Notes: generated from the letters alone by a model not told the origin. A DNA stretch of 64,000 nt from an uncultured Chloroflexia bacterium (GCA_963724635.1 CAVRVI010000001.1:16678-80677); one strand, 5' to 3'; shown: positions 1 through 3,345, numbered from the stretch's first letter. Made by a program: numbers and translations.

Positions 1-704
1 ATATCGGAGGACAGGACATCGCTCGCCGACGCGGTGTGCGGGAAGACTCGAACGCGGGCGCCGCGATGGCGCATCGAGCGCACGATATTGGCCTTGAGCC
101 CCAGGTCCACGATGCCGATGAGCGGCCCGCCATCGGCTGCGTCGCCGACCTCGGTGACCGCGGCCGGCGAGACCTGGGAGACGAAGTCCTGGTCCTCCCA
201 GCGAGCCACCGCGCGGGCGGCGGCACGGGCGACGTCCGGGTCCACTTCGCCCGGCGCCGTGACGATCCCGCGCAGGCAGCCGTTGGCCCGCAGGTGCCGG
301 GCCAGCGCCCGGGTGTCGACGCCGGCGATCGCCGGGATGCCGTTGCCCCGCAGGAGCGACGCGAGCTGGCGAGCGTCATCGAGCACGGCAGCGGTCGCGT
401 TGGCGACGACGAGGGCACGCAGCCAGGGCCGGATCGATTGATCGTCGGCGATGAGTCGGCCGTAGTTGCCGATGAGGGGATACGTCATGACGACGACCTG
501 GCCGGCGTACGAGGGGTCGGTGCAGACCTCCTGGTAGCCGGTCTGGCTCGTGTTGACGACGAGGTCACCGCCCGATGCCAGCGGGGCGCCGAAGGCCACG
601 CCCGGGAAGACCGTCCCGTCCTCCAATGCCAACAACGCCGGACCCAGATCGCCGATCCGGGGGTCGACGATGGCACTCGCGCGCGGCGACGGGGGGACGA
701 TCAC
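1..704 (-). CDS. carA: Carbamoyl-phosphate synthase small subunit (runs off the left edge)
   Basis: Not in the ORF track; manual minus-strand translation from GTG at 704 gives ...ALLALEDGTVFPGVAFGA...DLVVNTSQTGYQEVCTDPSYAGQVVVMTYPLIGNYG, the CarA N-terminal signature. Confidence 0.92.
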   Translation of the reverse strand, partial: MIVPPSPRASAIVDPRIGDLGPALLALEDGTVFPGVAFGAPLASGGDLVVNTSQTGYQEVCTDPSYAGQVVVMTYPLIGNYGRLIADDQSIRPWLRALVVANATAAVLDDARQLASLLRGNGIPAIAGVDTRALARHLRANGCLRGIVTAPGEVDPDVARAAARAVARWEDQDFVSQVSPAAVTEVGDAADGGPLIGIVDLGLKANIVRSMRHRGARVRVFPHTASASDVLSSD

Positions 705-769
705 GCGACGGCGGTACAAAACGACCCACCCGCCGGGCTGGCGTGGTGGGCGAGGGCGTGCGCGGACAT
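701..769 (-). CDS. Putative 22-aa leader peptide (MSAHALAHHASPAGGSFCTAVA), stop overlapping the carA start
   Basis: AAGGAGG followed by ATG at 769; TGA at 703-701 overlaps the carA GTG (GTGA). Confidence 0.45.
   Translation of the reverse strand: MSAHALAHHASPAGGSFCTAVA
716..750 (-). terminator. Possible attenuator/terminator hairpin inside the leader peptide ORF
   Basis: Minus strand CCCACC-ACGCC-AGCCC-GGCG-GGTGGG followed by TCGTTTTGT. Confidence 0.4.
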
Positions 770-778
770 CGAGAGCCT

Positions 779-834
779 CCTTCGTCGGCCTCACGGGACC
801 GATACGCCGGCCTCACAGGACCGGCCATGAAAGG
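779..834 (-). promoter_or_regulatory. Tandem PyrR-binding RNA loops upstream of carA
   Basis: Two hairpins, GCCGGTCCTGTGAGGCCGGC and TCGGTCCCGTGAGGCCGA, match the PyrR loop consensus GUCCNGNGAGGC and are enclosed by CCTTTC...GAAGG; they precede a pyrimidine-pathway gene. Confidence 0.75.
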
Positions 835-904
835 ACGGCGTCAGGGTAGCACGGCCGGTGCCACCGACGTCCCGGTCGATGGCACCGCCCGTCGCGAGCG
901 ACGG

Positions 905-3270: not shown

Positions 3271-3345
3271 TGGTGAGCCCGGAAGGACTTGAACCTTCAA
3301 CCCAGTGATTAAGAGTCACTTGCTCTGCCATTGAGCTACGGGCCC
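3271..3345 (-). tRNA. tRNA-Lys (CTT)
   Basis: GGGCCCGTAGCTCAATGGCAGAGC...AGTGA-CTCTTAA-TCACT...GGTTCAAGTCC...CACCA; 75 nt with encoded CCA. Confidence 0.96.

Follow-up and report, generated by a model that had tools for sequence, protein, structure and literature searches.

The window, the whole stretch of DNA analysed here, comprises 64,000 nucleotides, and all positions are counted from its first letter. At its start, the minus strand carries the 5' part of carA (704-1), which encodes the small subunit of carbamoyl-phosphate synthase and was assigned through its match to NF009475 / TIGR01368. The gene runs beyond the window start, and in the genome it is followed by carB, with CarB domains encoded downstream. 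All features of the leader described below lie on the same strand. A putative extended -10 box, TGCTACCCT (851-843), resembles TGnTAC(C/G)CT and occurs at the same distance in the leaders of genus g1. Transcription is predicted to start near G836, so that the 5' strand of a lower stem would form the 5' end of the mRNA. This strand, GUCCUUUC (836-829, including CCUUUC at 834-829), is a candidate anti-Shine-Dalgarno sequence. It is followed by two upper hairpins of the PyrR type, both recognised by folding and in an alignment of 31 leaders. Hairpin 1 (825-806) reads GCCGGUC-CUGUGA-GGCCGGC with the loop UCCUGUGAGG, while hairpin 2 (802-785) reads UCGGUC-CCGUGA-GGCCGA with the loop UCCCGUGAGG, and the linker GUA separates the two. 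The lower stem's 3' strand, GAAGGAGGC (783-775), is also the Shine-Dalgarno sequence serving an upstream open reading frame (uORF); it contains GAAGGAGG (783-776) and is located 6 nt before the ATG at 769. The uORF (769-701) consists of 22 codons and a TGA stop (703-701), and encodes the peptide MSAHALAHHASPAGGSFCTAVA. It contains a terminator-like element (750-716), composed of a hairpin (750-725) and the short U tract UCGUUUUGU (724-716), and its stop overlaps the GTG start of carA (704-702) in a GTGA (704-701).

In silico folding of the 67-nt leader (836-770) yields a three-way junction as the minimum-energy structure, in which both hairpins lie inside the lower stem and GUCCUUUC pairs with GAAGG-A-GGC. 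The leader has a G+C content of 71%, and its fold energy is not better than that of shuffled sequence (z -0.6 to 0). As a z value of -0.6 is ordinary for this G+C content, the energy alone provides no evidence, and the case for the structure rests on comparison. An alignment of 31 related leaders was evaluated with 500 shuffles and with a control in which the pairing partners were slid. Among the 31 leaders, 93.5% of the cells are paired in hairpin 1 and 96.2% in hairpin 2. The lower stem reaches 79%, despite register shifts and problems of alignment register at the flanks. None of the 500 shuffles matched the observed pairing values, and sliding of the partners lowers pairing to 38-55%. Double-sided changes occur at 10 pairs across the 31 leaders. 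These include G-C to A-U changes at two pairs of hairpin 1 and a C-G to U-A change at the basal pair of hairpin 2, the latter present in the window genome and in G007. The purine run at the uORF Shine-Dalgarno sequence is kept in all aligned leaders. The motif GGTCCNGTGAGGCC occurs twice in the whole 2.9-Mb genome, both times within the carA leader.

Two further pairings were noted during the folding work. A helix between the uORF start and the carA start is present in single-sequence folds; it was not recovered by RNAalifold and was dropped. A downstream anti-Shine-Dalgarno element, either CCCCUUCCC or CCCUCCC, was seen to pair with the Shine-Dalgarno sequence in leaders of types B and C.

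The identity of the hairpins was assessed against the Rfam PyrR model RF00515, whose consensus reads CCUUuUAAa-ucAGUCCaGaGAGGCUga-aAAAGG. Both hairpins carry a GUCC-NGNGA-GGC core and are flanked by CCUUUC and GAAGG, and the lower stem together with the doubled upper stem reproduces the consensus layout as GUCCUUUC ... GGUCCUGUGAGGCC ... GGUCCCGUGAGGCC ... GAAGG. The exact sequence GGUCCAGAGAGGCC is found in some of the relatives. The setting is likewise that of RF00515 sites, namely the leader of a pyrimidine operon, carA-carB, in a genome that encodes PyrR. The first-pass annotation, made from the DNA of the window, had described two back-to-back PyrR-consensus hairpins closed by CCTTTC/GAAGG. 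Both the hairpins, with the core present twice and the same module recurring before pyrR, and the closure are indeed there. The closure is no additional clamp: since the RF00515 consensus itself has a CCUUU/AAAGG lower stem, CCUUUC/GAAGG corresponds to the lower stem that is canonical for PyrR sites.

The search with RF00515 that had been proposed as a check found nothing at the gathering threshold (54 bits) or at E values up to 10, whether run on the window, on two sub-windows or on the complete genome. Of 14 control genomes, 6 have pyrR, yet the model reaches its cut-off in only 2; outside the Firmicutes, the failure to match a leader thus says little. Single-hairpin leaders of other Chloroflexota score 53.9, 47.7, 40.4, 36.6, 32.4, and 30.9 bits with RF00515. 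These leaders are weak matches of the lineage-specific model R1 described below, and they carry a leader ORF and a terminator that overlap the start of pyrR, pyrB or carA. The miss in the present leader can be attributed to the 22-nt insertion formed by the second upper stem and to the missing antiterminator helix. Judged by its sequence and layout, the Limnocylindrales site is best classified as a PyrR site with a duplicated upper stem.

The genome is a metagenome-assembled genome (MAG) of Candidatus Limnocylindrales with a size of 2.9 Mb on 21 contigs and an estimated completeness of 61%. CarA proteins of 75-89% identity occur in named records of MAGs that bear the label Candidatus Limnocylindrales, Chloroflexota or Chloroflexia. 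As noted from the outset, pyrR is not encoded in the window. A search of the genome located it on contig 6, with 250 bits against NF003549 (cut-off 138 bits), at the head of a pyrR-pyrB-pyrC cluster on a contig other than that of carA. Nearly all related genomes (30 of 31) encode the protein as well. Among solved structures, the closest to the PyrR of this genome is that of Thermus thermophilus (1UFR, 232 bits), and the segment DRGHRELPIRAD is conserved. The assembly shows apparent frameshifts in carB and pyrB, which are most likely assembly indels. Single-base errors in the leader are therefore possible; the relatives nevertheless share the reading frame of the leader.

The leader of pyrR in the same genome has the sequence CCCUUC-GGCCA-CGGCCCCGUGAGGCCG-...-GGCCCAGUGAGGCC-GGGAAGGAGCGAUG and shares its lower stem with the carA leader. 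GGYCCNGNGAGGCC occurs in it twice, and the pyrR ATG is immediately preceded by a Shine-Dalgarno sequence. This module is conserved throughout the genus. The covariance model R1 was built from the 31 carA leaders only and run against 31 whole genomes. Its best match is the carA leader in every one of them, scoring 76-89 bits for leaders of the genus, 48-60 bits for the two-hairpin leaders of family f2, and 25.6 bits for the single-hairpin f2 leader of G028. The second-best match is the pyrR leader in all 17 genomes of the genus that have a pyrR gene (32-42 bits, E values of 1e-6 to 1e-10), and all other matches score below 27 bits. The pyrR leaders align to the model with the same topology as the carA leaders. 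Overall, R1 matches are confined to the leaders of carA, carB and pyrR. Genus g5 has the tandem module also before a separately located carB, whereas in the genus of the window the second tandem site is found at pyrR rather than at carB.

The coupling between the uORF and carA depends on the correct assignment of the carA start. GTG 704-702 is in frame with carA, and the N-terminal extension of CarA that begins there (VIVPPSPRASAIVDPRIGDLGP...) aligns from residue 1-5 in relatives. The extension is conserved at the protein level as far as another family at 70% identity, and substitutions within it are either silent or conservative, among them a serine codon switch between AGT and TCG. The alternative starts TTG 635, 632, and 626 were rejected on account of the protein-level conservation of the 22-residue extension that begins at GTG 704. 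No purine run precedes GTG 704, the upstream sequence being UUUUGUACCGCCGUCGC.

In 37 leaders, the first start codon past the Shine-Dalgarno sequence was read to its stop. An NTGA overlap between the uORF stop and the in-frame carA start is found in about 23 of the 29 leaders outside family f2. In five others of the 29, the uORF ends 2, 3, 3, 10 or 11 nt before the carA start. The leader start codon of L048 is fused in frame to carA; for G016, no in-frame carA start was tabulated due to an offset of the alignment frame, and the overlap ACGUGAUCG is seen by eye. Across the order, the geometry is found in no fewer than five uORF families that are unrelated in sequence and range from 13 to 46 codons, with the patterns MSAHA...AGG[SF], VP.PIGG..., MH.RLPAAG..., VSAQ..., and M[IV][AV]C..NHRA.... 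At about 2% stops per codon for this G+C content, the repeated placement of a stop at the same codon and in the same frame in several independent families is estimated, rather than computed in a test, to be far beyond chance. Stop and start thus overlap or abut, the downstream start has no Shine-Dalgarno sequence of its own, and the geometry is kept while the sequence varies. In family f2, whose genomes measure 1.1 Mb, the codon at which the Shine-Dalgarno sequence would start translation lies in the reading frame of a longer CarA, and the predicted switch is a direct Shine-Dalgarno-occlusion device. What stays constant across the order is that carA has a single good ribosome-binding site, which lies within the lower stem of the PyrR site.

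The terminator-like hairpin has the stem CCCACC(A)CGCC / GGCGGGUGGG, arranged as CCCACCACGCC-AGCCC-GGCGGGUGGG (750-725), with a folding energy of -19.2 kcal/mol (z -2.45), or -21.3 kcal/mol with its upstream context. In a terminator scan, the element at 750-716 was the only terminator-like site within 500-1500. Two sub-types of the stem exist, CCACC-A-CGCC/GGCG-GGUGG and CCACCG-A-GCC/GGC-CGGUGG, which are related by a compensating register shift. Inspection of the sequence and the folds revealed no upstream segment able to pair with the 5' arm of the hairpin, and hence no antiterminator. In a genome-wide census, the strict version missed the bulged stem, and a looser version using ViennaRNA was employed. 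The element belongs to the approximately 36 strong sites of the genome found in this way, and the chance of such a site falling in a given 70-nt leader is estimated at about 4 in 10,000.

Several claims of the first-pass annotation concern this part of the leader, and they agree with the data. GAAGG does begin the ribosome-binding site of a 22-codon ORF, as GAAGGAGG lies 6 nt before ATG 769. This ORF crosses a terminator-like hairpin at 716-750, which combines -19.2 kcal/mol with UCGUUUUGU, is flagged by the scan and is conserved in many lineages. The proposed GTGA overlap with carA is supported by the in-frame GTG 704-702 and by a geometry kept in at least five uORF families. The suggested alignment of carA leaders from relatives gave uORF lengths of 13-46 codons and a conserved overlap in about 23 of the 29 non-f2 leaders.

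Taken together, the leader is interpreted as a PyrR-controlled switch of the carA-carB operon with a transcriptional and a translational arm, a reading to which a probability of roughly 0.7 is assigned. The occlusion of the Shine-Dalgarno sequence and the coupling to carA are highly probable on comparative sequence grounds, and the terminator arm is slightly favoured over a hairpin of no such function. According to this model, the mRNA would start at about G836, and its first bases, GUCCUUUC, would pair with GAAGGAGG to form the lower stem of the PyrR site. At high pyrimidine levels, PyrR with bound UMP or UTP would occupy both upper stems and stabilise the junction, and the locked junction would block ribosomes from the 22-codon uORF. 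In the untranslated uORF, the hairpin with its U-rich tract would form and transcription would stop. Transcripts that escape by read-through would yield little CarA, as the GTG would be reached only by ribosomes terminating at the overlapping TGA. At low pyrimidine levels, the Shine-Dalgarno sequence would be free and a ribosome would trail the polymerase through the uORF, prevent folding of the terminator and then re-initiate on carA. The ribosome itself would thereby be the anti-terminating agent. Against this explanation, which is the best of those considered, counts that the three-way junction alone folds at -27 kcal/mol. Two extensions of the model are more tentative. The tandem three-way junction might serve every member of the regulon found, namely carA, pyrR and, in one genus, carB. 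It is equally conjectural that the rigid 22-nt spacing of the hairpins in family f1 allows both stems to be clamped by a single PyrR tetramer or by a cooperating pair of dimers.

The main competitor, considered unlikely, is a purely translational switch. PyrR would likewise hide the uORF Shine-Dalgarno sequence, and carA expression would fall through the loss of termination-reinitiation coupling. The hairpin at 750-725 would then be no working terminator, and Rho-dependent polarity on the untranslated, C-rich leader would perhaps contribute. In line with this, type-B leaders (four species of the same genus) retain the uORF and the overlap and have no terminator-like element; more generally, the PyrR module is retained, together with a uORF or an in-frame fusion, by leaders of type B, type C and family f2, in which no hairpin plus U tract is recognisable. 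The U tract is short in the window (UCGUUUUGU) and weak in many type-A relatives, where it is degraded to sequences such as UUCGUCGUCUCC. Furthermore, canonical terminators are not enriched in the genome, with about 36 hairpin-plus-T-tract sites at or below -20 kcal/mol compared with 29 in shuffled sequence. The uORF region is also C-rich and G-poor and would in this respect resemble Rho-loading sites. However, 17 type-A leaders share the stem CCCACC.../...GGUGGG without variation, and homologous hairpins whose U5 tails are clean recur in L043, L044, and G198. Cleaner tails are a feature of distant members, with CGUUUUUGU in L043 and L044, and CCUUUUUGUGUGA and CGUUUUUGUGUGA in genus g5, where the U tail extends into the GTGA. 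Homologous leaders elsewhere in the phylum have terminators with U6-U7 tails, which RF00515 aligns as its own terminator helix. These observations count against a purely translational switch.

A second alternative dispenses with PyrR as the sensor. UTP would be sensed as in pyrBI, where a polymerase slowed at U-rich sites by scarce UTP allows a ribosome on the leader ORF to catch up and block the terminator, and the hairpins would be structural only. The position of the terminator inside the leader ORF and the missing antiterminator are indeed as in pyrBI. This mechanism is nonetheless very improbable here: the sequence upstream of the terminator lacks a U-rich pause region, the hairpins fit the PyrR consensus and recur before pyrR, and the leaders of family f2 and of pyrR have the hairpins with neither uORF nor terminator. 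That the hairpins are a chance occurrence, a repeat element or the site of a factor unrelated to pyrimidine control would suit the missing Rfam match and the unremarkable fold energy, but is effectively refuted on comparative grounds by the uniqueness of the motif to the carA leader in the genome, by the compensatory changes that conserve the hairpins and by the restriction of model matches to the carA, carB and pyrR leaders.

The dual control of the preferred reading has a close counterpart in Thermus. In the pyr leader of Thermus ZO5 and T. thermophilus, the subject of a study by Van de Casteele and colleagues (1997, J Bacteriol 179:3470), the PyrR site reportedly lies at the ribosome-binding site of a leader ORF. 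The terminator is said to be located inside this ORF, with no antiterminator, and a translating ribosome was reportedly proposed to prevent termination. The present leader is alike in that the Shine-Dalgarno sequence GAAGGAGG of a short leader ORF lies in the PyrR site and a candidate terminator lies inside the ORF, here with the short U tract UCGUUUUGU and a conserved hairpin. An antiterminator is again absent, and the PyrR protein is nearest to that of Thermus among solved structures. It differs in its target, which is carA-carB here and pyrR-pyrB in Thermus, in the two upper hairpins held in one lower stem as a three-way junction, and in the GTGA overlap to a carA without a Shine-Dalgarno sequence, which would add a translational arm. 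The first-pass annotation had offered a hybrid switch as a possibility. This reading is supported by comparison with relatives, but the switch is not new in kind, as the model reportedly proposed for Thermus ZO5 is the same. The leader is thus best regarded, by analogy, as a doubled-hairpin version of the design proposed for Thermus, involving no new principle. The new element is the presence of two upper stems inside one lower stem, and a further difference is the stop-start overlap, documented across the order, that would relay control to a gene lacking a Shine-Dalgarno sequence.

Occlusion alone reportedly suffices in Mycobacterium smegmatis, for which Fields and Switzer (2007, J Bacteriol 189:6236, PMC1951914) are said to have described PyrR-dependent translational repression through a hidden Shine-Dalgarno sequence and no antiterminator. 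The two systems would share a PyrR loop that sequesters a ribosome-binding site and the lack of an antiterminator. The occluded site is that of the regulated gene itself in M. smegmatis, whereas here it belongs to the uORF, which would relay the decision to carA. The lineage itself also has a direct arrangement like that of M. smegmatis, in the pyrR leader of this genome and in the carA leaders of family f2.

In Bacillus subtilis, pyr attenuators control the pyrimidine genes, including the carA homologue pyrAA. The features shared with these attenuators and RF00515 are the CCUUU/AAAGG lower stem, the GUCC-aGaGA-GGC upper-stem loop and a downstream terminator-like element. The present leader differs in having no antiterminator/anti-antiterminator logic, a tandem upper stem and a leader ORF, and it is not scored by the Rfam model. 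The pyrBI operon of Escherichia coli, with its leader gene pyrL, has a leader ORF that crosses an intrinsic terminator, where termination is prevented by a ribosome that closely trails the polymerase. The sensor there is UTP-dependent pausing of the polymerase, in contrast to the proposed hiding of the leader Shine-Dalgarno sequence by PyrR.

The tandem form is invisible to RF00515, and such sites are consequently missed by current annotation. With the leader described here, PyrR control would extend to an uncultured, widespread lineage of soil and freshwater Chloroflexota, in which it would take the ribosome-dependent form of Thermus and not the antiterminator form of Bacillus. If the tentative extensions of the model hold, the double clamp would make the response to pyrimidines steeper than at single-loop sites, and the uORF would be a general relay that turns one protein-RNA decision into transcriptional and translational outputs. 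The order holds a series of designs, comprising the single hairpin, the tandem, the uORF-coupled leader and the in-frame fusion, as well as leaders that have or lack the terminator-like element. This series could serve to separate the transcriptional and the translational contributions of one switch.

Upstream of carA in the window lies a near-perfect palindromic hairpin of 13 bp (852-891, both strands), for which fold computation gives -37.7 kcal/mol and a z-score of -4.24. It is placed between the carA -10 box and the stop codon (905) of the upstream gene, which encodes a secreted protein of 164 amino acids, and it carries no U tract. The hairpin may serve as a terminator of this upstream gene and overlap the -35 region of the predicted carA promoter. 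In a census of the whole genome (G000), hairpin-plus-T-tract sites were not more common than in shuffled sequence, which suggests that the organism makes little use of canonical intrinsic terminators.

The minus strand that carries carA also encodes, two genes further upstream, a homologue of uridine-preferring or pyrimidine nucleoside hydrolases (UriH/RihA/RihC; 1470-2693, match about 1e-69), so that pyrimidine salvage adjoins pyrimidine synthesis. Further upstream, a tRNA-Lys(CUU) is located at 3274-3345 (minus strand). In the small-genome family f2 (leaders L017-L024), the carA leader follows this tRNA gene directly, and approximately 20 nt separate the CCA end of the tRNA from the anti-SD strand downstream. 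In the genus of the window, two or three genes are inserted between the tRNA gene and carA. Elsewhere in the same MAG, pyrB (locus L003, 6733-9196) and carB (locus L004, 6749-10234) each appear to be divided over two reading frames; these splits are probably assembly indels and not true pseudogenes.

Leaders lacking the terminator-like hairpin are found in type B (L007, L009, L011 and L015) and type C (L040, L041 and L112). They contain a downstream CCCCUUCCC or CCCUCCC complementary to the SD, with which it is paired in single-sequence folds. In another genus of the order, g5 (L201, G198:C17; L202, G234:C27), carA and the separately located carB are each preceded by their own tandem module. 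The two modules are nearly identical, and each of the two genes also has its own uORF, of the pattern MV[AV]C..NHRA..AGG.FV, and the GTGA overlap. G234 harbours an additional, degenerate copy of the module 5' of a Tat-signal lipoprotein gene.

Other families of Chloroflexota have predicted single-hairpin PyrR sites, scoring 31-54 bits with the Rfam model RF00515, upstream of pyrR (L190, L199 and L200), pyrB (L193 and L194) or carA (L192). In each of these sites, the AAAGGAG of the 3' strand is the SD of a leader ORF, and this ORF overlaps the beginning of the gene that follows it (pyrR, pyrB or carA). Several of these leaders have a clean predicted terminator within the leader ORF, with U6-U7 tails in L190, L199 and L200. 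The Thermus-type design, in which a PyrR site covers the SD of a terminator-containing leader ORF, seems to be the default of the phylum Chloroflexota.
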